Below are positions 23,849-64,000 of a DNA stretch of 64,000 bases, piece by piece. The DNA is from a virus (taxonomy: Duplodnaviria > Heunggongvirae > Uroviricota > Caudoviricetes). How positions within the stretch are numbered: the first letter of the stretch is position 1; each line of letters opens with the position of its first letter. The stretch spans positions 88,286-152,285 of IMG/VR virus record IMGVR_UViG_3300032167_000002. The stretch is one strand, 5' to 3'. Made by a program: the position numbers and the translations under genes. A model generated the notes under the pieces. It was not told the origin of the DNA, did no database searches, and worked only from the letters and a program-made list of their open reading frames with translations.

Positions 23849-23864
23849 TAAAGGAGGATAAAAA

Positions 23865-44179: not shown

Positions 44180-44184
44180 TTTTA

Positions 44185-44956: not shown

Positions 44957-45443
44957 CTACCTGAACAATTCCACTATCATAGGGGAATAAGTATAAACAA
45001 GTTGGTTCACCGTCTTGAGGCTGAACCCAAATCTCAACGGCATCGCCAGCCGCAGTCAAATCCATAGCTTTAACTAAACCAACATTTAAACAGCAATCAA
45101 GAACATCTTCACCAAGATATTGAGGTTCAATAATCTTAAATACTGTGAAATAAGAAATTTCTTTACCATACAACATAAAATATTTATTATGGTAAGTTTC
45201 ATATAAGGTCCAAATATCATCCATCGCCTTACTAAAATCTTCAAGAATAGGCAATTGAGAAATGATTTGTTTATTCATATCATATAGACCCATATTAATA
45301 CCGCCGCTCTCCATCTTGATTTCATTCCAGGCACCTTCGTGCCAAATCATATATTTACCTTCAGGAGTCTGAACTAACTCACCTTCGGTAGGAGTGTAGC
45401 GGATTTGAGAAGGGTCAATCTTCTTGATTTTTAGGTCACCCAT
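44949..45443 (-). CDS. Hypothetical protein (164 aa).
   Basis: Track ORF. Confidence 0.5.
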   Translation of the reverse strand: MGDLKIKKIDPSQIRYTPTEGELVQTPEGKYMIWHEGAWNEIKMESGGINMGLYDMNKQIISQLPILEDFSKAMDDIWTLYETYHNKYFMLYGKEISYFTVFKIIEPQYLGEDVLDCCLNVGLVKAMDLTAAGDAVEIWVQPQDGEPTCLYLFPYDSGIVQVGE

Positions 45444-45482
45444 ATCAAATCTCTCCTTTATCTCATTTATACTAATATTATA

Positions 45483-45965
45483 TCAATTTTTTTTAGATAA
45501 GTCAATTATTCTCTGATTACGTGAACCTCTCATTTCAAGAGTAATATCACGCTCTTCTTCAATATAAGGACCATCAATTAGGTAATCCGCAAGCTCTAGC
45601 GCATGCCGCACTTGAGGATGACTTGCGTGTTGTAGTTGTTCATATGTATAACCACTCCAGATATATATCTTTGCTCCTGGAACTTTCTCTTTAACCTCTT
45701 TGACTACCAAATAGGTAAGGAAAGCATTTTCGTCACAAAGAGGTTCACCGCCCATGATACACAAATTTCTCTGTATACCCTGGGCGGTCAGTCCGGAAAT
45801 AATCTCATTTAAAGTCCCAGTAGTAAATTCTTTTCCTCGGTTGAAATCCCAAGTTTCTGGATTATGGCAGCCTTTACATCTATGCGGACAGCCTTGTGTA
45901 AAAAAGCTCACACAAAGACCGGGGGCCGCAGAAATATCATTTAAAATTAAACCACTATAATTCAA
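45483..45965 (-). CDS. nrdG: Anaerobic ribonucleotide reductase activating protein (radical SAM, CPHRCKGCHN).
   Basis: CxxxCxxC motif near the N-terminus. Adjacent to nrdD. Confidence 0.8.
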   Translation of the reverse strand: MNYSGLILNDISAAPGLCVSFFTQGCPHRCKGCHNPETWDFNRGKEFTTGTLNEIISGLTAQGIQRNLCIMGGEPLCDENAFLTYLVVKEVKEKVPGAKIYIWSGYTYEQLQHASHPQVRHALELADYLIDGPYIEEERDITLEMRGSRNQRIIDLSKKN

Positions 45966-45989
45966 GGGAATTTACTCCTTTCGTATGAG

Positions 45990-46014
45990 CGTAGCTAACT
46001 TGTAGTTAGCTACG
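45990..46014. other. Perfect 11-bp palindrome hairpin (CGTAGCTAACT-TGT-AGTTAGCTACG) between nrdD and nrdG. Possible RNA processing or regulatory element.
   Basis: Read directly. No adjacent T-tract on the coding (-) strand. Confidence 0.35.
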
Positions 46015-46015
46015 A

Positions 46016-48223: not shown

Positions 48224-48308
48224 AATAAAACCTCCATTTAAAAAACTATATTTTGTGTGGGCGTAAAAAACCTCTTACTAAATATAGTGTTTGTGCTTAA
48301 TCAATTAA

Positions 48309-48878
48309 TTACTTTTGTCCTTGAGCGAATCTGCGTCCGCTCTGGACCAAAATCTCCTTGACGTTGTCTTCTAAGTCGCCTTCAGTATTGTTGATAAGAC
48401 CGATATAACTAAAATCAATATCTTCAAAATCATTGTAATCAGCCTAAAAACGTCTTACAACTTCTCTAACGTCAGGGTCTTCTTCTCTGTTTAACTGGCG
48501 CAATAAACGAATCTTGTCATTGGTTTGAATCCAAAAGACAATTACATCACAATCCGGACGAGCCAAGAGAGACTCAACGCCTGTGGGATTGAATACGCCA
48601 ATATTGATTACTCCATCGCTGCGGACGGAGTCATAGCTGGTGCCATAGAACCAGTCGTTGAAAACGGTACACTCTAGCATCTCTCCATCAAGAACTTTCT
48701 ATCCAAATTTTTCTGGAGTATAATAAAAATAATTGACACCATGTGCCTCACCCTAGCGCATAGGGCGAGTGGTACAGCTAATAATTTCATGGAGGTCAGG
48801 GTTGGCTTCTATTACCGCCTACATTGTACGGTCTTTGCCAGACCCAGCTTCGCCCATTAAGGCAATAATTTTGTACAT
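48309..48878 (-). CDS. gmk: Guanylate kinase-like protein (189 aa) with four in-frame TAG read as sense.
   Basis: Reverse-complement translation: MYKIIALMGEAGSGKD (P-loop)...TTRPMR-GEAHGVNYFYY...FNDWFYGTS, matching Gmk signatures TTRxxRxGE, DY.F and NYYGT. Only TAG interrupts. The track shows only a 78-aa piece. Confidence 0.65.
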
Positions 48879-49102
48879 ATGTCAACTTCCTCCTCAAATT
48901 CGTATTCTAATTTGCCGGGAAGTTCACCCTCCCAGAATGTTGCATGACCATCGCAATCGGGATTCTCACACTTATAAGGATATTGTGCTGGATAAGTAGT
49001 GAGACAAATGCCAGTGGGGATTAACTCCCCACCGCACTTATCACAAATTGCTCTGGTTGTATAAATATTTTTTACCTTATATCGTTTAAGCATCTTCCTC
49101 AA
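48857..49102 (-). CDS. Small zinc-ribbon protein (81 aa; CDKCGG...CENPDCDGH).
   Basis: Track ORF. Cys pairs seen by eye. Confidence 0.5.
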   Translation of the reverse strand: MRKMLKRYKVKNIYTTRAICDKCGGELIPTGICLTTYPAQYPYKCENPDCDGHATFWEGELPGKLEYEFEEEVDICTKLLP

Positions 49103-52100
49103 TGCCTCCTTGATAACGAGAGTCTTTCAAAATCAATTCTCCATTAGGAAGAACTGCATCAATTTTATATAGCTGGTGACCGCCCGTAGAAGCATATTTC
49201 TTAGACACGAAATCATCACCAGAACGAATACCAGTAACCACAATCATATTTCCACGATTAAACCAGGATTTCTCCATAATCTTCTTCGTACCATCTGCTT
49301 GACGCTCAGAAATCTGCTTATCAAACATTGTGAAATATTCTTTTCTAAACTTGACATTTACAACACCTGTTGTAGTCAAAATAGTTACCGTACTCTTTGT
49401 CTTATTCTTTGCAATGCAAGTGCCGCAGATACGATTCAGTTTAAAGATATGAATATCTTTGCCACCCTTTGTAAAAGTCTTTTCAATTACTGGGTCTTCT
49501 GGTAGACTATAAAAGTCTACAAAACCATATCTATCATTATTGATATGCTCCAACTCATGCTCGTGATAATAGAAACATAATACTTCCATTTCCCATGCGG
49601 AAATAGTTCCTTTAGCATATTTCTCCCAATCTTGCATAAAGATTTCAGTATTTAAAGCATCCAAGATAGCTTCCTTATCAGAGGCAATCCACTTTCTAAA
49701 TACATCCATATGCTTCTGGTAGATATTATCCCAAGCCTTGGTTTTTACATACCAAGATAAGTTATCTGTTTCCATAATATCATCACATTCAATTTCATGT
49801 AAGAACGCAATCGCTCTTTCATCAAGACTATACATTCCTGCATATGTATACTTATCAGCTTTTGTAATTGCTTTTAAGTATCTGTTGAACTCATATACTC
49901 TACGAGCCATAATCTGTTCAGGAGTCTTTTCAGGCAGAAGATTATGTCTAATTAAACCACCCATATTCTGCAAAGTGATTCGACTCTTCTTATCACAAGT
50001 CTCCCAAATATACCAGGCCATAGTAAACTTTCTATCTTCCATACTATCAAAGGCTCCACCCTTGATTAGAGAAATCATAGCTTGCTTACCAGGTTTAACC
50101 TTATTCAAGAAGTCCTTGGGTGAACTATATGGTCTATTCGCAATGATTGCCGCAACCACATCATCACCTACATTTAACATACCCTTTAGACCGAATAGAA
50201 TTCGATTGTTTTCAACATCGGGAGCGAAACCGAACTTAGACTTATTAATGTCAGCTAAACTAACCTTAATGCCGGCGGCTTGGATGTCTCCAATCGCCTT
50301 TGCAATCTTACCATAATCGGTTGCCGCAGTTCTACGAATTTTCGCAGACTTATCGGGCAAGTCAATAAACTTAACTCCCTCTGCTAAATCTTGTGCTTCT
50401 GGAGCATAAATATCTACAATCTCTTCTTCACTATTATCTTCCAAAGAACCACTGTTAACAATCAAACAAGCAGTATTCCAATAAATTGGATTGAAATTAA
50501 TAACGAAATAAATAGACTGAATACCTACGAATGAGTAAGGTAGAGAGTGGTTCAAGCTAAATGCATAACCCAACTGAGGTGCAATCGCATTCTCCCAGAA
50601 ATAGTTTGCCACTCGAACGTCATCAAAGTTTCCATATACCTGCTCACGCAATTGAGGAATCTTACTCATTTGTTTCTTACCAACAATCTTTCTTGCATTG
50701 TTAGCTTCACCCAGAGTGAAACTAGCTACATCCATTAGAAGTTCCATCATCTGCTCCTGGAGAGCGCAACATCCCCAATACTGGTCACAATGCTTATGCA
50801 TTAATGCTTTTTGTTCGGGAGTGAAGTTTGCTTTATCCATTTCTCGGTCGAAAACATCCAAACCTTGATGCTGAATACGAACATATCTATCCTGTTGAGA
50901 CTCTTTATCTTTTTCAGACATAAGTCTCATCATAGCGTTCGCCGCAGTCATCTCCATAGGATTTTGAGGCTTTAATTTCTTCGCAATTGCCAAGCCGACG
51001 CCAGTACTGAACTGGAATACATCCAACACATCACCGGCCGCAAGATGGTCCCAAATGCGTTGGTCGCTTGTATCAATCACTTCTGGATGAATATACTTAT
51101 TATAAAGGTCACGCAGACCCATTTTTTCAATTACATTATCTTCAACAAGTAACTCAAAACATTTGATAATCTTATCAGAAATTTCAGTTACCAGGAAGTC
51201 ATACTTGGTATCACCGGCGGCCTCAGCCTTATGCAGGTCATAACAAGTAATTAAATCTCCACTTGGAGTTCTCATAAAACTTGCAGTTTCAAATGGGTCA
51301 TCACCATATAGAATGACACCAGATGCGTGAGAGGAACGCTTATTAACCAATCCTTCAATGGACATAATAATATCCAACAAACCAGGATAGTTGTTTACCT
51401 CACGTATGAACGGAGCCACGGGTCGTCTGTCTTTTTCTTCGTTTCCATAGACGACATCATTGATTGACCAAAGGAATCCTCGTTCCTGTGGCACCAGTGA
51501 AGACATGTATTGTGCGAGGTCGACATCGATTCCATCTGGGTAATCCTCGCTTCTATAACCGCGGCAAGCCGTGAGTATAGCTGATTTCGTACCCTCTGTT
51601 CCGAAGGTTGCAACCTGGACCAAACCAAGTTCTCCACGTTCTCTTCGAATTGCGTCAAAGATTGCGGGTCGCTTTGATGGTGCAAGGTCAATGTCGATGT
51701 CGGGCAATTCGGCTCTTTCCTTGTTAAGGAAACGCCAATAAGGTAAGCCCCATCTAACTGGGTCGAGCTGGGTAATGCCCAAGAGGTAGTTAGACAGAAA
51801 TCCTGTGGCCGAGCCTCGACCTGGGCCAACAATTGAGCCACATTCCCAGAATAGGTCGATATAGTGTTTGAAGGTGTTAAAATAGGCGAACAAGCAGTCA
51901 TCTAATTTCTCTCCAATATCTTTAATAACATCAGCCTCAGTCTCAAGACGAGTTAAGTATTCATCATATAATAATAAACCTTTTTCCTCTAAAGACTTTA
52001 GACACTCATTTATCCAATAACGCTCTTGAATATTATCGCTAGTTAAAAGTTCATTCAGTAATGGATGGCTAGAAAATCTCCATCGTTCATTTGATGCAGG

Positions 52101-53048
52101 ATAATCAGGCAAATCAATCTTAGGAATCATTTGTTTTCTTTCAAGAGAATACTCTTGATATTTTAATCTCAATTGATGAGAATTATTTAGAATTTGCTCT
52201 GCGATTGTGCCATCACCGAAGCAATCCTTTAATAAATCATAAACCTCATCATAGCTCATCAGATGAGCAAACTCATAGAAGCTATCAACCTCACGTTCGC
52301 CGCCTTTTGAATTCAAATAAGATTTATGAACAAATCTATCTGCTTTTGTCAGATAATGAGAGTCAGTGCCCACAATGATTGGAATATCATATGCCATTGC
52401 GATACGATATAACTTGCGATTCGTTGCACACTGGTCTTCCGCAGTTGAAGGCGCACACTCAATATAGAAATCATCACCAAAAATATCTCTACAAAAAGTG
52501 ATGAAATCACAAATCTGGTCATAAAAAACTTTTGCAGAAGCCATATCATTTACAGTTTCCGCACACACCATATTATAGGCGGCCGTAGATAACTCTCCGC
52601 CCATACACGCAGTTGATGCTACTACGTGTCCTTTATACTTGGACATAATTTTTGTCAGTTCCTCTTTAGTAATCGGAACACGTTCCATTCCTCGGTCAAC
52701 ATAAGAATTATACCAGGCGATAGAACTCAATTCACGAAGTGCTTTATGTCCAATAGCATCTTTCGCAGTCAAGATAAAGTGATAATATTTAATACCATTT
52801 TCTCGTTTATCTACTAAATAAACCTCATTGCCAAGAGCGATAATAAAGTCAGGATGTTTCTTTTTAATCTCCTTTGCATATTGATTTACTTCCATATGTG
52901 CAGATAAACACTCATGGTCAGTAATCGCAATGCCAGACAGACCTAACTCAATCGCTTTGTCAATGAGGTCTTTTGGTCTATTGATACAATCGAGCAAACG
53001 GATATTCGAATACATCGTATGATTATGTATGTTGAAATATGTTCCCAT
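49086..53048 (-). CDS. DNA polymerase III alpha subunit-like replicative polymerase (DnaE/PolC family) with an N-terminal PHP domain, 1320 aa, no TAG.
   Basis: PHP motifs HNHTMYS...GIAITDHE at the N-terminus. Size and general architecture fit. Confidence 0.75.
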   Translation of the reverse strand: MGTYFNIHNHTMYSNIRLLDCINRPKDLIDKAIELGLSGIAITDHECLSAHMEVNQYAKEIKKKHPDFIIALGNEVYLVDKRENGIKYYHFILTAKDAIGHKALRELSSIAWYNSYVDRGMERVPITKEELTKIMSKYKGHVVASTACMGGELSTAAYNMVCAETVNDMASAKVFYDQICDFITFCRDIFGDDFYIECAPSTAEDQCATNRKLYRIAMAYDIPIIVGTDSHYLTKADRFVHKSYLNSKGGEREVDSFYEFAHLMSYDEVYDLLKDCFGDGTIAEQILNNSHQLRLKYQEYSLERKQMIPKIDLPDYPASNERWRFSSHPLLNELLTSDNIQERYWINECLKSLEEKGLLLYDEYLTRLETEADVIKDIGEKLDDCLFAYFNTFKHYIDLFWECGSIVGPGRGSATGFLSNYLLGITQLDPVRWGLPYWRFLNKERAELPDIDIDLAPSKRPAIFDAIRRERGELGLVQVATFGTEGTKSAILTACRGYRSEDYPDGIDVDLAQYMSSLVPQERGFLWSINDVVYGNEEKDRRPVAPFIREVNNYPGLLDIIMSIEGLVNKRSSHASGVILYGDDPFETASFMRTPSGDLITCYDLHKAEAAGDTKYDFLVTEISDKIIKCFELLVEDNVIEKMGLRDLYNKYIHPEVIDTSDQRIWDHLAAGDVLDVFQFSTGVGLAIAKKLKPQNPMEMTAANAMMRLMSEKDKESQQDRYVRIQHQGLDVFDREMDKANFTPEQKALMHKHCDQYWGCCALQEQMMELLMDVASFTLGEANNARKIVGKKQMSKIPQLREQVYGNFDDVRVANYFWENAIAPQLGYAFSLNHSLPYSFVGIQSIYFVINFNPIYWNTACLIVNSGSLEDNSEEEIVDIYAPEAQDLAEGVKFIDLPDKSAKIRRTAATDYGKIAKAIGDIQAAGIKVSLADINKSKFGFAPDVENNRILFGLKGMLNVGDDVVAAIIANRPYSSPKDFLNKVKPGKQAMISLIKGGAFDSMEDRKFTMAWYIWETCDKKSRITLQNMGGLIRHNLLPEKTPEQIMARRVYEFNRYLKAITKADKYTYAGMYSLDERAIAFLHEIECDDIMETDNLSWYVKTKAWDNIYQKHMDVFRKWIASDKEAILDALNTEIFMQDWEKYAKGTISAWEMEVLCFYYHEHELEHINNDRYGFVDFYSLPEDPVIEKTFTKGGKDIHIFKLNRICGTCIAKNKTKSTVTILTTTGVVNVKFRKEYFTMFDKQISERQADGTKKIMEKSWFNRGNMIVVTGIRSGDDFVSKKYASTGGHQLYKIDAVLPNGELILKDSRYQGGIEEDA

Positions 53049-53054
53049 ATGAAT

Positions 53055-53095
53055 ATCCTTTCACTTATTTATTATATAATAATTATACCAAAATT
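53055..53095 (-). promoter_or_regulatory. Sigma70-like promoter for - strand transcription: -35 TTGACT (rc 53084..53089), 16-nt spacer, extended -10 TGGTATAAT (rc 53062..53070). Lies upstream of the polymerase gene.
   Basis: Near-consensus hexamers read from the reverse complement. The same motif recurs at 54601 and 61904. Confidence 0.55.
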
Positions 53096-53112
53096 TTTAT
53101 TATAAGTCAACC

Positions 53113-54303
53113 TTACGGTCTCACCCAAACGAGTTTTTCACTGGCACGGGTTGCCGCAGTATATGCCCAGCGTGCATGCTCGGTCTTTTCATAAGGAAAA
53201 CCTTCTTCATAGACCATTACCTTACCCCACTCAGAGCCTTGTGCTTTATGACAAGTAATACCATAGGCATAGGCGAATTCGAATGGAGGGTCAGGACATT
53301 TAGGATTTTTACGCATCTGGAACTCTTGCTTACCAGTTAAGAATTTCTCACCAGTAGTCAAAGAGGTATAATCGACGGGAATATAATTAAATACATCACC
53401 ATTCTCGTCAATCATGTTTGTATATAAAATAGGAATTTTTTTCTCACTAATCCAGAATGGAAGACTCATATCATAACGGTCAGTGCGCTGGATAACTCCA
53501 ATAGTGCCATTAGTTAAAGGAGCTGGGTCTACAACTCCATTAGAGAAGAACTCCCATTGATTTCTCAAACTAATAATCTTATCACCAACTGCGGGTTCGG
53601 GTCCGAATCCTTTAATCTGGCGCATATTCATATTAATCGCATTTCTCTTTGCGTTAGTCGCACAAAGAATTTGGTCTGCCCAATCGTACATTCCAGTTAC
53701 GATTTCTTCTGGCTTTACAAACATTACTTGTTGACCGGATGCAGGGAATTCGTTAAGAGGCTTGCCTTCACGAATCCACATAGAGAAACGAATAATTTCA
53801 CTATCATATGCCTGTCGCATAATTTCATCCAAGAAAATATGCGGATGGTCAAGTACATGATTATCACTATCCTTGTCGATGGGAGGTAACTGGAAGGGGT
53901 CGCCGCACGCAATAACATGAATGCGATGTGACAACAATCTCAACCACATTTCTTTTGGAAGCATAGAAACCTCATCAACAATAATAACTTCCAACCCATC
54001 ATCCAAGGAGGGTTTTGGTTCAAATTTAAAAGTGCCATTTGGCATGGGTTTTGCTTTATAAAGCAATTTGTGAGCAGTAAAAGGATTAGGACACCCCTTC
54101 TGCTTTAACACTTGTGCGGCCTTACCAGTATATGCCACATAACACACTTGCTCGGGTTCTAGACCAAGGGCCGCAATGATAAACTTAATCAATGTAGACT
54201 TACCTGTGCCAGCGTAGCCGGAGATACAAGTGTAGGCTTCATGCGACTTATAACGAGAAACCGCAATCTTTAATCCCTCTTCTTGTTTAGCTGTTAAAAT
54301 CAT
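53113..54303 (-). CDS. SF1 DNA helicase, Dda/RecD-like (AAA_30 / UvrD_C_2 type), 396 aa.
   Basis: Walker A GYAGTGKST, Walker B VIIVDEVSMLP, motif VI ITCHKAQGSEWGKVMV. Confidence 0.75.
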   Translation of the reverse strand: MILTAKQEEGLKIAVSRYKSHEAYTCISGYAGTGKSTLIKFIIAALGLEPEQVCYVAYTGKAAQVLKQKGCPNPFTAHKLLYKAKPMPNGTFKFEPKPSLDDGLEVIIVDEVSMLPKEMWLRLLSHRIHVIACGDPFQLPPIDKDSDNHVLDHPHIFLDEIMRQAYDSEIIRFSMWIREGKPLNEFPASGQQVMFVKPEEIVTGMYDWADQILCATNAKRNAINMNMRQIKGFGPEPAVGDKIISLRNQWEFFSNGVVDPAPLTNGTIGVIQRTDRYDMSLPFWISEKKIPILYTNMIDENGDVFNYIPVDYTSLTTGEKFLTGKQEFQMRKNPKCPDPPFEFAYAYGITCHKAQGSEWGKVMVYEEGFPYEKTEHARWAYTAATRASEKLVWVRP

Positions 54304-54578
54304 TTTATATCATCCTCCTGGTCATGCGCATGAACCAGTTGCTCAAGAGTCATATAGAAATGTTGTTTACGACTATTCATACGACGCTTTTCTTCAATTG
54401 GGTCAGTGCGCTCAACACGAGCCTTATATATGGCTAATTCATCACATACCTCAGCAAATCTGAAGTAAATACTATCAAAGCCAAAATCAAGCCTATCTTT
54501 ACAGACTCGATTTAATTCGTCTCGGTCAACATAAACCTTATTTAATTTTTCTACTAATTTTTGTGCTTCTCTATTCAT
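54300..54578 (-). CDS. Hypothetical protein (92 aa).
   Basis: Track ORF. ATGA overlap with the helicase. Confidence 0.45.
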   Translation of the reverse strand: MNREAQKLVEKLNKVYVDRDELNRVCKDRLDFGFDSIYFRFAEVCDELAIYKARVERTDPIEEKRRMNSRKQHFYMTLEQLVHAHDQEDDIK

Positions 54579-54599
54579 TTACATTCACCTTTTTATTTT

Positions 54600-54630
54600 T
54601 ATTATACCAAAATTTATATTAAAAATCAAC
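54600..54630 (-). promoter_or_regulatory. Sigma70-like promoter (- strand): -35 TTGATT (rc 54624..54629), 17-nt spacer, extended -10 TGGTATAAT (rc 54601..54609).
   Basis: Read from the reverse complement. Identical architecture to the 61904 promoter. Confidence 0.5.
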
Positions 54631-55077
54631 GGTAAAATCCCATAAGGGTCGCTGTTGTATAAAGTCCTCACTATCAAGGTCGACAAAACCAGGTAAAAAT
54701 GGATTTTGCTCAATTTGGGAAAAAATTTCTAAATCCCCTTTTTGATTTGGGTTTTCGGTCTTCTCGTCCAAGGCCGACCGGAGCTCGTCTATTTTTATTT
54801 CATCTATATCAATTATTGCTTGTAATGCAGCATCTCGACTTTCACACTCATATCGCAAATCATGCAAGTCATCTTTAATAGCAGTAATCTCACTACTATG
54901 ATATTCTAGACGAGAAAGAACTTCATTCATTCTTTTAATTGCCTAAGTCATTTCATAAGCCGTAACCCCAGTAGATGACATAGCTCGAGCCAAATCTTGT
55001 ATTTGACTTGAAAATTGATTCATTGATGGTAGTTCATATACGGTGCCATTCACCGCAATTGAATGTAACTGTGACAT
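54619..55077 (-). CDS. Hypothetical protein (152 aa) with one TAG read through. N-terminal 49 aa (MSQLHSIAVNGTVYELPSMNQF...) is missed by standard-code ORF calling.
   Basis: RBS AGGAGAAAATAAG plus ATG at rc(55075..55077). Frame continuous with track ORF 54619..54930 through a single TAG. Confidence 0.5.
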
Positions 55078-55090
55078 CTTATTTTCTCCT

Positions 55091-55132
55091 ATAAATGAAA
55101 ATAATGGGAACATAATATTAAATTATGTTCCC
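55091..55132 (-). terminator. Rho-independent terminator for the upstream (-) gene: GGGAACATAAT-ATTAA-ATTATGTTCCC followed by a T-rich tract on the - strand.
   Basis: Perfect 11-bp inverted repeat read directly. Confidence 0.6.
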
Positions 55133-55140
55133 TATTTATA

Positions 55141-56028
55141 TTAGCCTACGAAATACTCGTAAGCACGTCTTGCGTAATCTCTACGCACCCAACGATGTCC
55201 TTCGCCACAACGCTCATAATAACAAGCGAAAGCATAAGCACAATCTTCAGGAGTTTCTGCATTTATAATCTTATCGAGCTGACTGTCAGTAACCTGCTTA
55301 GTCACTCCATTAGTTCCATATAATTCGTCTTTTACGAAGTCAAGCTGGTTTTCAACACTGGGATTATTTCCATAGATTGAAAATAACTGCTGTTTGCGGC
55401 CGCCTAACCACTGAATCATACCAAAACCACTAGAACTACTTACGTCCCAGTCAAGGTCGGAAGTCCAGCAACCGCCGCATTCTGCCATCATGTTACCCAT
55501 GATACCAGCGCAAACAATATCACTAAAACCAAGTTCATTCTTCATATAGAGCCAAGCTTGAGTGGCGACCGGATATTCCTCTGCGCGCCCTCTCCAATTC
55601 TCTTCCTCTTGGCGAATTAACTGTTGTTCGGTATAATACTCAACATCTGCTTCAGCATTCTCGAAATCAGTTTTAGCCATGACTACCGCCGGGTGTTCTG
55701 TATCATAGCCCAAGAGCAATAATCCTTCATACACTGATTTTGTTGTATCTTTGCGAAAGATGGCATCTTCTAATGCAGTATTAGCCTCGTCTAATGTAGC
55801 AGGTTCGACACGCTCGACCTCTACAACTTCTAATATAATTATCTCTTCTTCTGGTTCGGTTTCAAGAACCGGTTCAGAAGGCTCAGAAGGGATGTAAGCT
55901 TCCGAAATAGTAGCAACTGGTTCAGTTGGTATAGATTGATTTGCACTGGCAGTGATGGCAATCGTAGCAGCCAATCCTGCGAATAACAAGCTCAATATAG
56001 CAACTAAACAAATAATTTTTCTTTTCAT
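55141..56028 (-). CDS. Secreted peptidoglycan hydrolase, phage-type lysozyme-like (295 aa). N-terminal signal peptide/anchor (MKRKIICLVAILSLLFAGLAATIAITASA). C-terminal domain carries CAGIMGNMMAECGG and a Cys-rich tail.
   Basis: Signal peptide and lysozyme-2-like motif recognised by eye. The location inside the replication module is unusual. Confidence 0.5.
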   Translation of the reverse strand: MKRKIICLVAILSLLFAGLAATIAITASANQSIPTEPVATISEAYIPSEPSEPVLETEPEEEIIILEVVEVERVEPATLDEANTALEDAIFRKDTTKSVYEGLLLLGYDTEHPAVVMAKTDFENAEADVEYYTEQQLIRQEEENWRGRAEEYPVATQAWLYMKNELGFSDIVCAGIMGNMMAECGGCWTSDLDWDVSSSSGFGMIQWLGGRKQQLFSIYGNNPSVENQLDFVKDELYGTNGVTKQVTDSQLDKIINAETPEDCAYAFACYYERCGEGHRWVRRDYARRAYEYFVG

Positions 56029-56067
56029 AATTTCCTCCTAATATTTCTATCAGGCCGTCATTATTTA

Positions 56068-57804
56068 TTAGAAATAGTATTTCTGTTCTCCTACGATTTC
56101 GTAATCTTCAATAATAATTTGTGGTGTTACCGTTCCATTCCAAACGTTGCGCTCACATTTACCCACAACGTTGATAGTAATGCATCCGGATTCGGAGCGG
56201 AGTTTTTCATACTCTTCTTGTGACGACTTGAATTTGATTAAACTCGTGCCATTTGGCAAGGTTATCTTCAGAGTCGGACTCTTATCGGGCGACATTAAAA
56301 CTACATTACCTGCATATACATTAATGTATTCAATCGCCACATAAGGTTCATCGACTCCTTGGCCCCATAAAGATTTGAGTTCAGCGATTTCAACAATATC
56401 TTTTCCACGGAAATCAGCACCATTGAAAATGAAATCAACTTTATAACATGGGGTAAAGTCAAATTCTGCGAGTTCTCGATTAGAGTATTCAATAAAGGTT
56501 TTAAATGCTTCATCAGTAATGCCAACACCCAATGCGTTAGCATGGCCTTCGGCATACATGACTAAATCACTTTCCTTTAAGAATTCTCTTAGGTTATCAA
56601 ATTTCGATTTATCGTATCCTCTTCCTGAACCCTCCCAGCCATCTACTGTCTTATTTAGTAGCAGAACTGGTCGTTGATATTTCGCCATTAGTTGGTTTGC
56701 AATCAAACCAGTAAGGTTTCTATCGGCCGCAAAAGTATCTAATTTGACAACCAAAATCTTATTCTCTAACAGATTTTTTTCTTTGATTATGCGTTCAATG
56801 TTCTCCAAGGCTGCGTCTCTTGCTTTTGTCTGTCTATTTTTAATGTTTGTGCAATTACGACAAGCCTGCTCTACTCTTGTCTCCTGCTGACCCTTACATC
56901 CTCTCTTGGTTGATGGGACTAGTTCATATCCCCGATAGTCAAGCATAGACTCGAATAGCATGAGCTTTTCTTCTTGCGTTCCCATTCGAATAGTGGCATT
57001 TACATAGGGAGCAATATAGAAAGCTACTCCAATAGGTGTGATTTCACCTTTCAGCGAATACGCTTGTTTGTCTACCATACCTTTGAAGTATGGATTACGA
57101 ATATTTTCAAGACCGCGTGTAATCAGATGTCTCGTTTCAAAATCTCGTAAGTCCATCATGTCGGCCACCATGCCCAGTGCGACCAAATCCAAATAATCAT
57201 CTGCGTAATCAACATTGAGGAGTTCATCCATATAAGAACAGAACTTATATACCATTCCAACTCCAGACAAAGACTTGGTGGGATAATCACAAAGTTGATT
57301 GTTAATAATCACAGCATTTTCGGAAATTTTATCTGCTTCATGGTGGTCAATTACCAACACATCCACTCCTTTGGACTTCAACTGTTGATGTTCATCATAG
57401 TCATTAGAACTAGAGTCTGGTGCGATAACCAGTTTTACATCATCAGGGATGGTTTCCAAAAGAATTCCGTGTTGTTTCCCCGTATGGATACGATAGTAAA
57501 TATTAGATTGCACAAAGCCGGGGAAAAGACGATTTAAATAGTTGATTAAAGCGGCGGCTGAAGTATAACCATCACAGTCGCTATCAATCTAAATTAGAAC
57601 TTTGTCACCTTGTGCAATGTGTTTCACGAGGACTTTTGCGCCCTCTGCGACATTCATAATCATCTATGGATTAAGAATATCTTCATCTGTTGTGTTTAAA
57701 TAGTGTTCTACATTTTCGGGGTCAATACCTCGATTAAACAGCACCTGTTCGACCGCACTTAATTCTCTAGGCGGGATGCGAGATGCTAAAAGTTGATATT
57801 CCAT
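56068..57804 (-). CDS. RecJ-like DHH-family ssDNA exonuclease/phosphoesterase (578 aa) with two TAG read through. The true N-terminus (97 aa, including DHH motif I IDSDCDGYTS) lies upstream of the track ORF.
   Basis: DHH motif VLVIDHHEA in the track ORF. Reverse-complement translation of 57514..57804 gives MEYQLLASRIPPRELSAVEQVLFNRGIDPENVEHYLNTTDEDILNP-MIMNVAEGAKVLVKHIAQGDKVLI-IDSDCDGYTSAAAL, in frame (1737 nt). RBS AAAGGAGG. Confidence 0.65.
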
Positions 57805-57868
57805 AGAATTCAACCTCCTTTCATGTAGACCACCAACTATTTATTTGAAAAATGTTTCAAATCAATTA

Positions 57869-58186
57869 TCACTCCTTGGCATGAAAAAATTCATAATGTC
57901 GAGGACCGTTATAACAAATCAAGGTTCTTTTAATAACGCAATCGACGAATTCTTCACTGCACCGGGAGTCAATCCAAGCATAATTGGAGCGAATACCTCT
58001 ACTAGACTCGCTAGCACTAGCAACTCTCCATATGTCGCCATTCTCAAACTCAACCCAAGAATTTTGACGAGAATAAACTTCTCTAGTAGGATTAATACCA
58101 GACCAAATATATCTATCTCTGATATATTTTAGTTTTTCAATTCCATCACCCGCTCTATCATAAGACCAGATAACACCTTTCATCAT
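57869..58186 (-). CDS. Hypothetical protein (105 aa).
   Basis: Track ORF with TGA stop. ATGA overlap with the primase. Confidence 0.45.
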   Translation of the reverse strand: MMKGVIWSYDRAGDGIEKLKYIRDRYIWSGINPTREVYSRQNSWVEFENGDIWRVASASESSRGIRSNYAWIDSRCSEEFVDCVIKRTLICYNGPRHYEFFHAKE

Positions 58187-59286
58187 AAAACAATCCTCTC
58201 TTTAAATAGCTTTAAAAATGTATCGGGGCCGCAGTCAATCGGACTGTCCTTATAACCAGTAATCATGTTCTTATCAAAAATAAATGAAATCAAAACAAAG
58301 GTCTTATATTTATCTCTTAATCTTACTAAATTAGTCTTTAAATGTTTAAATTCTTCATCACCGATTTCTTGGAACTGTCTATCAAATGCGACAATAATTT
58401 CTTCGGCGCCAGCTTCTATGAGCATTTGTATCTGGTATGATGACACACTCGACCCGCAGCACGCAACCGAAATATCATTTTCCAATCCAAAATATGATTG
58501 ATATAACAAACAAGATTTTTCACCTTCAAAAATAATCGCTTTCTTCATCAGTTTGATATTATCTTTACTATTGTTGAAATTATATAAATTCATTCCAAGA
58601 GGATGATTATATAACTCACGATTAATTCTCATAGGTCTATACTTGCCGAATCGCTCGCCCTCTTCCGCACATAGTGTTCGCCCACGCAAACCTATAAATC
58701 GACCATCTTTGTCGAAGTGCGGAATTGTGATTTGGTCTCCTCCTGGATAATAACCAATTCTTGCTTGGTCAAGTGCGGCTTGGGTAATACCCTCCCGCAA
58801 CCAGGGACCTATCTTCACAGAGTAGTTGAAGCGTTCCAATATATCATTTTCATATTCTTTTAAGACGACCGTGTTGGTTTTCACAACAACATCTTGAATA
58901 CGCTCGTAGTTAGCAAGGTATTTCCAATCGTCTAATGCTTCATCTTCTGGACGGTCTTCATGGTCGCCAGAAAATCCAAATCGTTGGGCAATCCACCTAA
59001 CTGCGTCATTTAGGTCGAACTCTTTATCCCATTGGATTTTAGCGACCTTAGTAGTTAGTTCGAAAATATCAAAGTAGCTATCACAACCTGTATAACAACG
59101 AAACAACCCAGTATTTTCATAGTAATATAATTTTCTACTTCCTTCACCGGGAGGGTTGTGGCAGATGGTAGTGGAGGTAAACCCGAACACTTCACGTCCA
59201 GGGTCTCCACCCCATTCCTGCAACAAATCGTATATATTTTCGTCTGTTAGAGCTTCTCTGATTTTCGTTTTGTCAAATACTAACAT
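58183..59286 (-). CDS. DNA primase, DnaG-like with a CHC2 zinc finger, 367 aa.
   Basis: CHNPPGEGSRKLYYYENTGLFRCYTGC zinc-binding motif. Located next to the DnaB-like helicase. Confidence 0.7.
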   Translation of the reverse strand: MLVFDKTKIREALTDENIYDLLQEWGGDPGREVFGFTSTTICHNPPGEGSRKLYYYENTGLFRCYTGCDSYFDIFELTTKVAKIQWDKEFDLNDAVRWIAQRFGFSGDHEDRPEDEALDDWKYLANYERIQDVVVKTNTVVLKEYENDILERFNYSVKIGPWLREGITQAALDQARIGYYPGGDQITIPHFDKDGRFIGLRGRTLCAEEGERFGKYRPMRINRELYNHPLGMNLYNFNNSKDNIKLMKKAIIFEGEKSCLLYQSYFGLENDISVACCGSSVSSYQIQMLIEAGAEEIIVAFDRQFQEIGDEEFKHLKTNLVRLRDKYKTFVLISFIFDKNMITGYKDSPIDCGPDTFLKLFKERIVL

Positions 59287-59588
59287 TAATTAATATCAAC
59301 AAGAACCTTGACGCAGAATCCTTTCAAACCGCACTCGCGGTTTACATAATCACACAGAATCTCCTGTGCGGGCTTGGGCAACTTACCGCTCTTAGTCTTG
59401 GCGTCATTGAGAATCTGCTCAGCCATGACCTTGCCCATCTTGTACTCGAAAGTGCCGGCGCAAACATCAGGAGCGGGAATGGTGTCACGCTTCTTGTTAA
59501 AAGCTCCGTCCAAACGAGGTGTATTGTTATTGGGCTTGCGGTTATTGTTTCTCTTGCCGTTATTATTCTTCTTTACAAACTCTGCCAT
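59286..59588 (-). CDS. Small Asn/Lys-rich hypothetical protein. Likely start at the internal Met (about 100 aa), avoiding a 56-nt overlap with the helicase. The track version is 59286..59720.
   Basis: RBS AAAAGGAG upstream of ATG at rc(59586..59588). Confidence 0.4.
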   Translation of the reverse strand: MAEFVKKNNNGKRNNNRKPNNNTPRLDGAFNKKRDTIPAPDVCAGTFEYKMGKVMAEQILNDAKTKSGKLPKPAQEILCDYVNRECGLKGFCVKVLVDIN

Positions 59589-59664
59589 ATCATTAATCTC
59601 CTTTTTATCAATAATTCCAAAATCGGAATCGTGTAACAAATTTAATTTACTTCTTGAGCCACGC

Positions 59665-61206
59665 TCAATCTTCGCACTCGAAAGCTGACTCTTCATCGAT
59701 TCTAATACGAACATCATCAATACTCACCATTTCATAATCATATGTGGTGCAGAACATTGGTTTAATTCGGCAAACACCCAAATCAGCCTTACACCACAAA
59801 ATTACACCCTTGTATCGTCCTCGTCTATTTTTATAAATAGACATCTTAATTGTAGGTCTTTCAAAAATATTAGAGGACAATATATTTTCCAGAGATACCA
59901 AATCATCATCTTTTACAGACAACAAAATAGAACCATAGTCAATCTTATCCGCAATGGCTTTCGCACCACGCAGTAAGTTCTGGTCGGGAGTTTTACTATC
60001 TTGGTAATCACCGTTCAACTGGGTTGCTGACATAATAAACACACCATACTGATTACAAATGTCTTTTAAACGAGTTGACAGCATGAATAGAATATTATCT
60101 TCTCTCAACTTAACGCCACCAGAACGCTTTGTGATTTCTTCCAAGATTTTCAAACTTGTATGAATATAATCGTGGAACACATATTTTACATCATGTTCAC
60201 GAATATTCTTTTTGATTTTATTTTCAACATCCTGTAGAGAGAAGTCAGGCAACTCTTCTACATAAATAGGACTTTCTTTTAATAACTTTGCCGCTTGAAG
60301 AATTCGTTCCTCTTCGCCTTCGCCATATTCGCCATTAAGAATATGTTCCTCGTTAACGTTAGATAAGAACGCAAGCATCATAGTTTGAATTTCTTCAAGT
60401 TCCTGCTCTGTTGTGATGAATAAAACTGGCTCGGCAGGGCCACTACCAATCCATCCAAAAGTTTCATCGTAAATCTTATTACAACCAATATAGCAGCAGT
60501 CCGCAATCATTGAACGAGTTTTACCGATACCGGTTGCCGCAGAACGAAGATAGAATTTCTTCAATCTTGCGCCACGAGTAACTGTATTAATAAGCGGGCC
60601 ATATAGAGGTACACCGACTTCTGGATGCTCTTTGAATTTTTCAATCAAATCAAAAATTCCATCACCGGCTTGCTGTGCTTCTCCAAAAGCGTCATCAACA
60701 TATTGAAGTCGAATATCATCAATCTTTTTATCAACTTTATCAGCAATTTCTTCCAAAGTTGAATTATCTAATTGGTCCTCTTGGAGTTGCTTTTTCTTTG
60801 TATCTAAAATATTATCTGCGTCATAAATATCGGTAACATCAATTCCGCAGTTATCAAATGCACGAAGTAAAGAGAATTTCTTTAATCGTCCATAATAGTA
60901 ATCAAATGCTGATGGCATTGCGTTTTCTGAAATCTTCAGTAACCACTCTTCGCCCTTGCCTTGCTTATATACCGCAGCACTCTTGGGTCTTGACGATAAG
61001 AAATCGGAGATACTCTCCAATGTGATTTTATTCGCACCCAATTCATGGATTTTATAAATCGCACCAAAAACAGTTTTATGGAAAGGGTCTGCGAAATCTT
61101 CATCGACAATTGAATATCTATCAGTCGCTTCCAGAAGCTGAGGGGTATTAAACACGCAGCCAATTACCTGCATAATCGCAGTTGTATCTACATACTTACT
61201 GCCCAT
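59665..61206 (-). CDS. DnaB-like replicative helicase, 513 aa.
   Basis: Walker A SAATGIGKT, Walker B-like VFHDYIH, arginine finger NRRG, DnaB-like N-terminal domain. Confidence 0.7.
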   Translation of the reverse strand: MGSKYVDTTAIMQVIGCVFNTPQLLEATDRYSIVDEDFADPFHKTVFGAIYKIHELGANKITLESISDFLSSRPKSAAVYKQGKGEEWLLKISENAMPSAFDYYYGRLKKFSLLRAFDNCGIDVTDIYDADNILDTKKKQLQEDQLDNSTLEEIADKVDKKIDDIRLQYVDDAFGEAQQAGDGIFDLIEKFKEHPEVGVPLYGPLINTVTRGARLKKFYLRSAATGIGKTRSMIADCCYIGCNKIYDETFGWIGSGPAEPVLFITTEQELEEIQTMMLAFLSNVNEEHILNGEYGEGEEERILQAAKLLKESPIYVEELPDFSLQDVENKIKKNIREHDVKYVFHDYIHTSLKILEEITKRSGGVKLREDNILFMLSTRLKDICNQYGVFIMSATQLNGDYQDSKTPDQNLLRGAKAIADKIDYGSILLSVKDDDLVSLENILSSNIFERPTIKMSIYKNRRGRYKGVILWCKADLGVCRIKPMFCTTYDYEMVSIDDVRIRIDEESAFECED

Positions 61207-61209
61207 TAT

Positions 61210-61869
61210 TTACTCCTCCTCGTCTAAAAATGTGAATAACGGACGCTTTTTAACTTTTCTCTGCGGCCTGGGGATAACAATCTCCTTGACCTTTGGAGTA
61301 TATTGTTCGACTTCAACATCTTTATTTTTCTGCTTGGCAAGCCATAAATTATAATAGTAGTTATAAGCATTTTCATACACATAAGGTACAATACCAATAC
61401 CACCATTTGCTTTTGACTTGTCTCCGCCTTTTATTTCATAATGATATACTAATGCTTTGCGAATGCCCGAATATGTATAATTGAATTCCTCAACATACTT
61501 TTTAATCTGCGCTCTAACTCTTGGGTCAATGTAAGTTGTATTAAATAATTCTTTAATATAATCTTCCAACTGTTCCTTATCAGTTTTTTCACGCTTCTCT
61601 TCAAGCTCTTGACAAGCCTTATGAACATATTTATTATTTCCAATCATAACGCAATCTGCGTCTTTCTTGGACATTGGTTTTTGACAATATGCACACTTAA
61701 CATTATCAAGTGGGTCAATGATTTCTTTCTTTACATAGTTTGGGTCTTTCTCTGCTTCACGAAGCATACAGGCGGCGTGTGCATAGCGACGCGCACCGAT
61801 TAACGCATATTCTTCCTTATCTCTGTCAAACTTCTATTTACAATAAGGACAGAGAACCATATGTGCCAT
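61210..61869 (-). CDS. Tandem zinc-finger protein (219 aa) with one TAG read through. Two repeats of CxxC-(22-23)-HxxC (CPYCK-KF...YAHAAC and CAYCQKP...YVHKAC).
   Basis: Reverse-complement translation of 61768..61869 gives MAHMVLCPYCK-KFDRDKEEYALIGARRYAHAACMLREAEKDPNY, continuous with the track ORF. RBS AAAGGAG. The track shows only the second finger. Confidence 0.55.
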
Positions 61870-61903
61870 ACCTTATGCTCCTTTCTTACATTTCTTATAA
61901 TAT

Positions 61904-61954
61904 ATTATACCATAAAAAATAAAAAAAATCAAGTCGGAGCGGAACGCCCCGACC
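61904..61954 (-). promoter_or_regulatory. Compound element. GC hairpin terminator (61932..61954) for the upstream - gene, overlapping a sigma70-like promoter: -35 TTGATT (rc 61927..61932), 17-nt spacer, extended -10 TGGTATAAT (rc 61904..61912).
   Basis: Read from the reverse complement. Third copy of the TTGAyT-N16/17-TGGTATAAT architecture. Confidence 0.5.
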
Positions 61955-61966
61955 TGATACAAATTC

Positions 61967-62938
61967 TTACATTAGGTCAGACTTAATGTCAGCAACAATC
62001 AAGCTAACGAATTCAGCCTGCTCAGGAGTGGTGTCTCCTACCTTCTTGCCCTTGCCAAGATATCTCTCAACAATAGCAGTAATCTTGGGGCCGTTGGTAG
62101 TACCCTTACTCATTAGCTGACCGACCAAGTCCTGGAATTCAGCCATCAGAGCATCGTAATCATAAGTTACCGCAGTAGGAGCAACAATGCGCTCGCTAGT
62201 TACGAACTGACCAGCAGTTTCAGCGGCTTCCTTGTCAATAGCTTCATTCAAAGCATTAACAAGATTCTTGTAGCTCATAACAATTTCAGTAGGCATATAC
62301 TTGAAACGGCAGCCGCACTCAATAGTACCAGAAGCATCACGCAGAGTCAGAACAGACATCTCACCTGCGGCCTTCTGATGAGCATAACCGTAAATATCAG
62401 CCATACCAGCGATAACAGTCTTGGTGGAGTTGCTTAGAGTAGGACGAATCTTCAAAGTCTTAGTACCATCGGGATTATCAATGGATTCGGGCTTATCGTG
62501 TCCAATGAAGAATACTGCATAACCCAACTGAGTCAAGCCACGGAATACTTCATTAAACTCTTCCTTGAACTTAGTCCAACCTTTACCGTAGCCAAGGTCA
62601 CCTAAGTCCTCAATGCCATTCTGATTGCAGATATACTTCTTACAACGGTCGGCAGCGATGTCAATAGTGTCAATAATAACACAGCGATACATCTCCTGAA
62701 CACGAGGGTCCTTCAACTGACGGTACAGCTGCTTCATTTCGGCCCAGGAAGTAACATCCTGTGCCATAACACCAGGCAATGCGTGATAACCAGGTTCGAA
62801 AGCAACTAGAAGGGCCTTATCCATCTGTACGGCAAGAGTAGTCTTGCCGCACTTAGGAGCGCCGTAAATATATGTGATGTAACCACTTAGGTCACGAGAA
62901 ACTTTATGAGGCTGTAGAGCCAATAAATCAATTGCCAT
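61967..62938 (-). CDS. RecA-like/Sak4-like AAA ATPase (recombination/annealing-associated), 323 aa.
   Basis: Walker A GAPKCGKTT, Walker B CVIIDTID. Position next to the SSB-like gene. Confidence 0.6.
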   Translation of the reverse strand: MAIDLLALQPHKVSRDLSGYITYIYGAPKCGKTTLAVQMDKALLVAFEPGYHALPGVMAQDVTSWAEMKQLYRQLKDPRVQEMYRCVIIDTIDIAADRCKKYICNQNGIEDLGDLGYGKGWTKFKEEFNEVFRGLTQLGYAVFFIGHDKPESIDNPDGTKTLKIRPTLSNSTKTVIAGMADIYGYAHQKAAGEMSVLTLRDASGTIECGCRFKYMPTEIVMSYKNLVNALNEAIDKEAAETAGQFVTSERIVAPTAVTYDYDALMAEFQDLVGQLMSKGTTNGPKITAIVERYLGKGKKVGDTTPEQAEFVSLIVADIKSDLM

Positions 62939-62961
62939 GTTTATGTCCTCCTCAGTTTAAA

Positions 62962-63900
62962 TTAGAAATTAAATCCGCCCTGAGCAGGAGCTGCGGCCTT
63001 AGGAGCAGCGTTACGAGATGCCTTATATTCATCCTGACGCTTCTTCATAGCAGCCAAATCAACCTCACGCTTCTGGATAGCTTCATTCAGCTCAGCAGCA
63101 GTGATAGAACTCTCGTCGTCCCATACGTAAGGCTCCTTAGCTGCGCCAGTGATGACGAAATCACGACGAGTATTCTTAACCTCACGAACCTCGTCCTCAC
63201 CGAATGCGGACTCAGTTACAATCTGACGAACAACGACTTCAGATACCTGACGTCCCCAAACACAAGTGAACACAGGATTCTTCTGAGAAGCCTCAAGACT
63301 CTCAAAATATCTCATAGCGTTAGGATTAGTAGCGCTGAACTCAATAGGAAGCAAACTCTTACGGAAGTCGAAGATAGCACCCTTAACAATGCACTTCTCA
63401 GGCAGGTTCTTCTCATCGTCAGCATCAATATGCTTTACAGAAGTGATAACCATATCAGCCTTGAAAGTGTTACGAACCTTTTCATCTTCGTCCAAGGCAT
63501 CAACCTTATGAACGAAACCGCCTTCGTTACGCTTTGCAGAAACAAGCTCTTCCTTACCATTACGGTCGGTATAGAACTCATTTAGACCCAATGCAGAGTC
63601 AACGCGAAGCTTAACGGCCTTATCAGCACCATCCTTCATATAAGAACCGAAAGTGCCATTAATGATATTACTCAAAGTAGTGAAAGTATCATTGGGCTTG
63701 CCGGAACCGAAAGTTGCAGTCACATAAGTGAAATGAACTGGAACAATATTAGTCATAGCATCATCAGTTGCAATGCTGATAGTACCAGAAATGAACTTGG
63801 TTCCAGGATTCTTGGAGGTCTCTCCAGACTCCTTCAAAGTTAAGTCATGCTCATACAAAATACCCTCAATGTGAGTCTGATTAATCATAGTCTTTTTCAT
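62962..63900 (-). CDS. Putative single-strand DNA-binding/annealing protein (312 aa) with a C-terminal aromatic tail (...GGFNF).
   Basis: Genomic context (upstream of the Sak4-like ATPase) and a C-terminal flexible Ala/Pro-rich tail ending in Phe. Weak. Confidence 0.35.
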   Translation of the reverse strand: MKKTMINQTHIEGILYEHDLTLKESGETSKNPGTKFISGTISIATDDAMTNIVPVHFTYVTATFGSGKPNDTFTTLSNIINGTFGSYMKDGADKAVKLRVDSALGLNEFYTDRNGKEELVSAKRNEGGFVHKVDALDEDEKVRNTFKADMVITSVKHIDADDEKNLPEKCIVKGAIFDFRKSLLPIEFSATNPNAMRYFESLEASQKNPVFTCVWGRQVSEVVVRQIVTESAFGEDEVREVKNTRRDFVITGAAKEPYVWDDESSITAAELNEAIQKREVDLAAMKKRQDEYKASRNAAPKAAAPAQGGFNF

Positions 63901-63917
63901 AATTAAATTAAATCTCC

Positions 63918-64000
63918 TTATTCAATCTCAATATTTTTTCCATTGTCAGTGATAGAGTAGATAACCGGGTCCTGACCAACCTTTTCGACGAAACCATCAG
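63918..64000 (-). CDS. 3' end of a gene continuing beyond the window (...DGFVEKVGQDPVIYSITDNGKNIEIE*).
   Basis: Open - strand frame to the window edge. TAA at rc(63918..63920). Confidence 0.4.
   Translation of the reverse strand, partial: DGFVEKVGQDPVIYSITDNGKNIEIE

Follow-up and report, generated by a model that had tools for sequence, protein, structure and literature searches.

Several replication genes in a 64,000-nucleotide stretch of phage DNA (hereinafter, the window; positions 88,286 to 152,285 of the IMG/VR virus record IMGVR_UViG_3300032167_000002, Caudoviricetes) contain in-frame TAG codons. In our best explanation, in which we have high confidence, the window is part of the genome of a large uncultured gut phage (about 155 kb) that carries an SPbeta-like replication module and uses genetic code 15, with TAG read as glutamine; the affected genes, namely, those for a RecJ-like exonuclease, a YorH-family zinc-finger protein and a protein of 152 amino acids (aa), would each be a single full-length gene. 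The window is 100% identical to bases 65526..129525 of the gut-metagenome contig ERZ27248314 k141_63026 (155,655 bp) from ENA. TAG-to-Gln recoding and the ensuing annotation damage are already known, and recoding-aware annotation already copes with them; specific to this case are the lineage, a large SPbeta-like phage with no close described relative, and the clean codon-level evidence in replication genes. The original prediction held that calling of open reading frames (ORFs) with the standard code truncates these genes and hides functional N-terminal motifs. Its interpretation of the extended proteins as the real gene products is supported, with small corrections to the coordinates. The features in question are the following.

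56068..57804, minus strand: predicted gene for a RecJ-like single-stranded DNA exonuclease (SPbeta YorK homologue), 578 codons with TAG as Gln
57814..57821, minus strand: Shine-Dalgarno sequence AAAGGAGG, 9 nt upstream of the RecJ ATG (57802..57804)
57664..57666, minus strand: in-frame TAG, RecJ codon 47, a variable position
57589..57591, minus strand: in-frame TAG, RecJ codon 72, directly before DHH motif I
57559..57588, minus strand: DHH motif I, IDSDCDGYTS, RecJ codons 73–82, missing from the standard-code call
61210..61869, minus strand: YorH-family double zinc-finger gene, 219 codons with TAG as Gln
61834..61836, minus strand: in-frame TAG, YorH codon 12, within the first CxxC...HxxC finger, between CxxC and HxxC
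54619..55077, minus strand: 152-codon gene without functional assignment, TAG at codon 45 (54943..54945)

Translation of the RecJ-like gene bore out the two in-frame TAGs and the 97 aa hidden ahead of the standard start. The standard-code ORF begins at a GTG (57511..57513; codon 98) with no Shine-Dalgarno sequence and encodes 481 aa; because there is no start codon between TAG72 and GTG98, motif I is lost from this product. The motif had been placed upstream of both TAGs but is located just after the second one, as can be seen in the predicted peptide across codon 72, with Q at the TAG position, VLIQIDSDCDGYTSAAALINYLNR. Similarly, the strong ribosome-binding site exists, but at 57814..57821, whereas 57805..57812, where it had been mapped, is the spacer. 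Profile and structure searches assign the predicted protein to the RecJ/DHH phosphoesterases, as a putative phage YorK-like exonuclease. The Pfam DHH domain matches residues 68–212 (7e-18; 65.5 bits versus a cut-off of 28.1) from profile position 1 and hence spans TAG72, RecJ_OB scores exactly at its cut-off (27.0 versus 27.0), and DHHA1 remains below it (17.5 versus 25.9). Both motif I (IDSDCDG) and motif III (VIDHHE) are present. PHROG 2484 covers residues 14–575 (1.5e-158), and the RecJ structure 8y30_A from PDB covers residues 18–570 (2.5e-27), with motif I aligned to GDYDADG; further RecJ structures matched include 1ir6, 2zxo and 5f54.

The hidden N-terminus of the RecJ-like protein shows the conservation pattern of a translated sequence in several respects. 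SPbeta YorK aligns from residue 1 (36% identity over residues 1–571), 122 of the 124 full-length RecJ representatives span 70 or more of the 97 N-terminal residues, and D74, D76, D78 and G79 are invariant in the alignment of all 124. Furthermore, the ratio of non-synonymous to synonymous substitution rates (dN/dS) for codons 1–97, computed against eight relatives, is 0.10–0.21, indicating purifying selection on this segment. A protein identical to the 578-aa product (P0001) is present in a public collection.

In the YorH-family gene, the standard-code ORF starts at ATG 61765..61767 (M35) and encodes 185 aa, with the entire first finger (C7..C34) lost. The Shine-Dalgarno sequence AAAGGAG lies upstream of the long-form start (61869), and none precedes M35. 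Thus, the predicted loss of the first of two fingers stands, although the TAG lies inside this finger and not downstream of it. All 119 full-length close homologues keep the first finger and open with MxHxVxCxYC...RRYAHAxC; position 12 varies among them (T, Q, I, A, G and others). Membership of the predicted protein in the SPbeta YorH family is supported by PF26927 (Phage_SPbeta_YorH), which is precomputed for the identical called product and for homologues, and by PHROG 4680, which covers residues 56–210 (2.4e-27). SPbeta YorH aligns to residues 56–172 only (35% identity; E 7e-17), and the additional N-terminal finger (61705..61869; residues 1–55) falls outside the family model, with no counterpart in SPbeta YorH or PHROG 4680. 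Given that both match only from residue 56 onward, the first finger looks like a lineage-specific duplicate of the second (CPYCKQKFDRDKEEYALIGARRYAHAAC versus CAYCQKPMSKKDADCVMIGNNKYVHKAC, compared by eye). The expectation that homologues contain the hidden segments thus holds for YorK and for the close YorH homologues but fails for SPbeta YorH and PHROG 4680. A product initiated at M35, as in the standard-code call, would fit the canonical one-finger architecture.

The third gene gains the anticipated 49 aa when TAG is read through (152 versus 103 aa), the standard-code ORF starting at ATG 54928..54930. Here, too, a Shine-Dalgarno sequence (AGGAG) is found upstream of the long-form start (55077) and none before the internal ATG. 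Where orthologues have GAA, AAT or AGT at codon 45, their ORF runs without interruption over all 152 aa. Pfam and PHROG searches yielded no assignment for this protein.

The amino acid encoded by TAG was assessed by codon-by-codon DNA comparison of 55 orthologous loci from IMG/VR along with loci from ENA and JGI. Codon 72 of RecJ is TAG in 29 loci, CAA in 33 and AAA in 2, and SPbeta YorK has Gln in the same column (LFVQVDSDVDG). Codon 12 of YorH is TAG in the closest relatives, CAG at 93% identity (L010 and L006) and CAG or CAA in the more distant L019 clade, with GCT, AAA and other codons elsewhere. A further gene of the same strand provides four more sites, each of which is CAA or CAG in relatives at about 91% identity:

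48309..48878, minus strand: guanylate kinase gene (Pfam Guanylate_kin on the called product), four TAGs (codons 20, 42, 60 and 145)

Because TAG alternates with CAA and CAG in close relatives, it is predicted to stand for Gln. Consistently, Gln accounts for 25% of the residues opposite TAG columns among 35 distinct RecJ orthologues, against a background of 3.8% (6.7-fold enrichment), followed by Glu, Lys and Asn. RecJ orthologues of other lineages contain 1–9 TAGs each, at other positions, and recoding of RecJ is therefore common in this group. Identical TAGs are found in independent ENA and JGI assemblies.

The recoding extends throughout the window. With a simple gene finder of our own, code 15 (TAG sense) yields 52 genes with a median length of 618 nt and 95.1% coverage, compared to 83 genes, 372 nt and 85.9% for the standard code (code 11); code 4 (TGA sense) brings no real gain (82 genes, 394 nt, 87.2%). 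Neighbouring same-frame ORFs merge throughout the window once stops are limited to TAA and TGA. We counted 67 in-frame TAGs in 20 of the 49 mapped genes, including 53 TAGs in 13 of the 27 genes of the plus-strand structural block and 14 TAGs in 7 of the 22 genes of the minus-strand block devoted to replication and nucleotide metabolism. The CAG share of glutamine codons, CAG/(CAA+CAG), is 0.16 in TAG-containing genes, with a GC content at third codon positions (GC3) of 0.20, versus 0.46 and 0.31, respectively, in TAG-free genes, the difference in CAG share being highly significant (Fisher p = 7.5e-16). By composition, the genes form two classes, exemplified by 100..2892, 9658..10845 and 35239..38766 among TAG-containing genes, which have hardly any CAG, and by 49086..53048, 46016..48223 and 61967..62938 among TAG-free ones; this split is compatible with an origin of TAG from CAG and/or with distinct modes of translation. 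In composition, the flagged replication genes resemble the rest of their block (GC3 0.28–0.42), and therefore their TAGs look like occasional CAG-to-TAG transitions, unlike the wholesale recoding of the structural genes. Some TAGs close to the ends of long ORFs might be either sense codons or terminators, namely, codons 741 and 749/753 of 7049..9310 (plus strand) and codon 965/987 of 3715..6678 (plus strand).

Were TAG a true stop, the short ORFs (481, 185 and 103 aa) would be the real genes, with internal starts, and the upstream frames would be untranslated leaders. Indeed, the 185-aa YorH from M35 keeps everything that is present in SPbeta YorH and PHROG 4680, and some public pipelines annotate exactly these short forms. 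We nevertheless consider this reading very improbable: the internal starts lack Shine-Dalgarno sequences, whereas strong sites stand at the long-form starts; the 481-aa RecJ would be devoid of the invariant metal-binding motif DxDxDG; purifying selection acts on the upstream codons, and these specify segments homologous to standard-code proteins from residue 1; and relatives have CAA or CAG at the TAG positions. Premature stops in conserved genes are also the usual signature of decay, so that the genes might be pseudogenes, or else the TAGs might be assembly or sequencing errors. We assign a vanishingly small probability to either scenario, given that the interruptions are exclusively TAG, never TAA or TGA, that there are zero frameshifts, that separate ENA and JGI assemblies agree on the TAGs, which also recur across clades about 30% diverged at the protein level, that dN/dS is low on either side of the TAGs, and that the same pattern holds for the 67 TAGs in 20 genes of the window.

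More room is left for readthrough of TAG as a residue other than Gln, such as Trp, Tyr, Ser, Leu or Lys, although this, too, appears improbable. In its favour, two of the four TAGs of the flagged genes occupy variable columns, Glu, Lys and Asn are frequent opposite TAG columns as well, some phage suppressors have been predicted to be of a non-Gln isotype (PMC10879173), and 7 of the 28 suppressors in relatives have a long extra arm, like class II tRNAs. Conversely, at conserved columns, TAG alternates specifically with CAA and CAG (RecJ codon 72, YorH codon 12 and all four guanylate kinase sites), Gln is the enriched residue opposite TAG, the suppressors of the nearest relatives (75 nt) combine G73 with a U1 that is mismatched to N72, as in tRNA-Gln, and TAG-rich genes are depleted in CAG specifically.

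Several observations weigh against code 15 with TAG as Gln or limit the support for it. RecJ codon 47 and codon 45 of the 152-aa gene fall at variable positions and are uninformative on Gln: the former is GCA, AAA, TCN, TAT and others in orthologues and is called Q, K, R or E in close homologues. The 49 mapped genes end with TAA (38) or TGA (11), but the map defined gene ends in this way. ARAGORN and Rfam searches of the window, of 10 kb to either side and of ~63 kb of a 96% relative, IMGVR_UViG_3300045988_079139, yielded neither a tRNA nor an Rfam family, the search totalling about 125 kb of the phage and this relative, which was walked in four 10-kb steps; an estimated 32 kb of the source contig lies outside this coverage. 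Finally, the case for Gln insertion is made at the sequence level.

Decoding of TAG is most likely carried out by a phage-encoded glutamine-type amber suppressor tRNA, as suggested by the genomes of relatives. The replication-module loci of 35 relatives contain no tRNA recognizable by ARAGORN or Rfam. The contig of the 96% relative ends 1.8 kb upstream of a 303-aa gene, and relatives have arrays of up to 32 tRNA genes upstream of the orthologue of this gene. A tRNA with the anticodon CUA is present at 27 of 80 metagenome loci; the metagenome scan recovered relatives only, the identical JGI contig not being among them. In L251, which represents a 96% relative, tRNA-Met and tRNA-Cys located 3.6 kb upstream of the orthologue of the 303-aa gene form the end of the array, and in L252, L254 and L255 (85% identity in the flanking gene), the array reads Thr-Ser-Sup(CUA)-Leu-Gly-Lys-Lys-Met-Cys and is co-oriented with the gene block. 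Overall, Sup(CUA) is found in the syntenic array of relatives at 76–85% identity. In the relatives, the array heads a block of roughly 90 kb in which all genes point the same way and the replication genes come last, and in the source contig it would be expected to lie outside the window. The arrays of the lineage comprise 9 to 32 tRNA genes, including tRNA-CUA (L252:696-6549, L251:547-1104 and L181:192-8762).

Among the 19 suppressors with an encoded CCA end, U1 is without a G-C partner at position 72 in 17 (U:U in 9, U:C in 6 and U:A in 2) and G73 is present in all, whereas the other isotypes in the same arrays have G1:C72. A weak 1:72 pair together with G73 are classic identity elements of bacterial tRNA-Gln. 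The seven amber suppressors of relatives with an extra arm between the anticodon and T arms (L182, L192, L202, L207, L212, L217 and L229) are 88–98 nt long, as is the second Sup tRNA of phage Phass-1 (L009:1102-1192), which also has the extra arm. The loop of this arm, CUCUGAA, UUCUGAG or CUUUGAA, resembles the tRNA-Gln anticodon loop displaying CUG or UUG, and its short stem covaries (GCC/GGC, UGC/GCA, CGC/GCG and CCC/GGG). The extra arm may mimic the Gln anticodon and thereby keep charging while the true anticodon reads UAG. A limited literature search, which extended to key terms in PMC10879173, found no account of such extra-arm suppressors. By a published estimate, 52.4% of predicted code-15 phages encode a suppressor tRNA (PMC11210395).

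Every gene in 41939..64000 is on the minus strand. The TAG-bearing genes of the minus-strand block are those for RecJ, YorH, the 152-aa protein, guanylate kinase and three small ORFs, whereas the DnaE-type polymerase, the PIF1-like helicase, DnaB, the primase-like protein, the Sak4-like YorG, YorF, NrdD and lysozyme are encoded by TAG-free genes. Between RecJ and YorH, the TAG-free genes are the following.

58183..59286, minus strand: primase-like gene (YorJ position)
59286..59720, minus strand: small ORF
59665..61206, minus strand: DnaB-type helicase gene

The presence of amber codons in genes of the replication block, as predicted, was seen directly, and the label ‘early or middle’ attached to these genes derives from their function and position. 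TAG is dense in the plus-strand structural genes and sporadic in the minus-strand replication and nucleotide-metabolism block, where, under the mechanism we propose, the RecJ-like (two TAGs), YorH (one), 152-aa (one) and guanylate kinase (four) genes would be single full-length genes with Shine-Dalgarno sequences at their true starts. A standard-code gene caller stops at a TAG and restarts at the next ATG or GTG, yielding RecJ without DHH motif I and YorH without its first finger. To judge from the relatives, an array with the suppressor tRNA(CUA) at the head of the block would supply the decoding, and the sporadic TAGs would be CAG-to-TAG substitutions that are tolerated because the suppressor is present when the replication genes are translated. 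These data fit a scheme in which early genes are TAG-free, replication genes contain an occasional TAG and structural genes are rich in TAG, the timing being deduced from gene function and position.

A bolder possibility, which we regard as rather unlikely, is that the 5′-proximal TAGs serve as a translational timer, such that RecJ-like activity and two-finger YorH would appear only after the suppressor tRNA accumulates. If so, there would be a ‘middle’ expression class between TAG-free early and TAG-rich late genes. Consistent with such a timer, RecJ TAG72, which directly precedes the catalytic motif, has been retained as TAG in two clades that differ by about 30% at the protein level, and in the 96% relative, the first ~30 kb past the array are without a TAG-bearing plus-strand gene, with TAGs sporadic beyond. 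It is also conceivable that a short one-finger, SPbeta-like YorH isoform is made from M35 before suppression sets in.

The gene order of the module mirrors yorF–yorL of SPbeta (NC_001884), namely, YorF, AAA_24/Sak4-like YorG, YorH, DnaB helicase YorI, YorJ, RecJ-like YorK and DnaE-type YorL. By contrast, SPbeta uses the standard code and has a one-finger YorH (156 aa), and the module in the window contains an additional lysozyme, the 152-aa gene and the PIF1-like helicase as insertions. Megablast of 54600..61900 against a curated phage collection gave no nucleotide match, and relatives were found by tblastn instead: the RecJ-like protein has counterparts in phages of Bacillus, Staphylococcus, Lactococcus, Enterococcus and Enterocloster, all at less than 60% identity. 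A host within the Bacillota is therefore likely.

The nearest described recoded relative is Phass-1, of the proposed Phassvirus (Babkin et al., 2023, PMC10607447; OQ749652, ‘Caudoviricetes code 15 clade’), likewise a human-gut siphovirus-type phage of more than 130 kb with TAG read as Gln. The two also share a giant tape measure protein, a RecJ-like gene, NrdD, tRNA arrays with tRNA-Sup-CTA and recoding that includes non-structural genes. Even the annotation artefact recurs, the RecJ region of Phass-1 being split in GenBank into three coding sequences for ‘hypothetical proteins’. Yet its RecJ is only about 36% identical, and the TAG positions are not shared; furthermore, two tRNA-Sup-CTA genes adjoin nrdD in Phass-1, whereas in the lineage of the window, there is no tRNA in the nrdD region, the array being placed at the distant head of the block.

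Similarly, in the clades described by Borges et al. (10.1101/2021.08.26.457843) and in code-15 crAss-like phages (PMC9523058), the latter validated by metaproteomics, TAG is reassigned in phages of standard-code hosts, recoding is heavy in structural and lysis genes, replication genes are affected ‘variably’, and a suppressor tRNA is presumed. The phage considered here differs in belonging to another lineage, with an SPbeta-like DnaE/DnaB/YorK module, that we could assign to none of their named clades, and is known from its sequence only. TAG-to-Gln reading, concentration of TAGs in late genes, variable use in replication genes, a role of suppressor tRNAs and annotation damage have all been published for gut phages (10.1101/2021.08.26.457843; PMC10607447; PMC11210395; PMC9523058). 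As for annotation, Cook et al. (2024; prodigal-gv and Pharokka-gv; PMC11210395) reported that translation table 11 fragments and truncates the genes of code-15 phages and that table 15 restores their length and functional assignment; in their data, re-calling lifted the median length of genes from 287 to 481 bp and the coding capacity from 66.8% to 90.0%. That general survey conveys the same practical message; the lineage of the window and the genes flagged here are not its subject.

The foreseen truncated automated annotations are indeed found in JGI/IMG and MGnify, while recoding-aware calls are already full-length. The JGI contig Ga0257089_10000596 (L067), with 99–100% protein identity to the window for the flagged genes, has table-11 calls of 46 + 481 aa for RecJ, 185 aa for YorH, 44 + 103 aa for the 152-aa gene and 65 + 92 aa for dihydrofolate reductase, with a GIY-YIG endonuclease in four pieces. 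Exact look-ups located the 185-aa YorH form in 21 JGI/IMG contigs and as MGnify entry MGYP005610346695, where it is flagged FL=1, and the 103-aa form in JGI/IMG and Logan. Gene calls from ENA and Logan, in turn, include the complete proteins of 578, 219 and 152 aa, which have Q wherever the gene has TAG. Hence, users of table-11 annotations of this phage group receive damaged proteins, such as RecJ without motif I and YorH minus one finger, with dihydrofolate reductase, guanylate kinase and the homing endonuclease split or shattered, and the truncated entries distort protein-family catalogues and functional inference. Beyond annotation, the window adds a large SPbeta-like gut phage lineage to the code-15 phages, and the clean comparisons of TAG with CAA/CAG in replication genes bear on the timing of suppressor activity during infection. 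The truncated 185- and 103-aa proteins are also encoded by a 406,409-bp JGI contig. It is about 2.6-fold longer than the phage contig and could be a concatemer, a mis-join or an integrated copy.

Other genes of the phage show some additional peculiarities. The TAG-rich plus-strand block is punctuated by a TAG-free run (15797..26701), which consists of a 2,683-aa ORF followed by ORFs of 69, 643 and 195 aa; the sole match of the 2,683-aa ORF is PHROG 14959, of unknown function. This ORF, together with the AT-richness and TAG recoding, had raised the candidacy of a crAss-like phage, which is ruled out by the SPbeta-like replication module and the DnaE-type polymerase. A protein search with a tape-measure fragment recovered contig-end fragments only, and the matching scan of viral contigs yielded zero relatives. 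In the minus-strand block, the lysozyme gene (55141..56028, minus strand; Phage_lysozyme2, 3e-20), located between RecJ and the 152-aa gene, encodes a protein with a hydrophobic N-terminus and is TAG-free, contrary to what would be expected under the model of recoded lysis genes. Just past the end of the window, about 2.1–3.1 kb beyond base 64000, the replication block includes a GIY-YIG (homing-endonuclease-like) gene (L066:6888-7880). Its counterpart in the 96% relative (IMGVR 079139 composite, 46429..47421) contains 10 TAGs in 330 codons, a density far higher than that of its neighbours.

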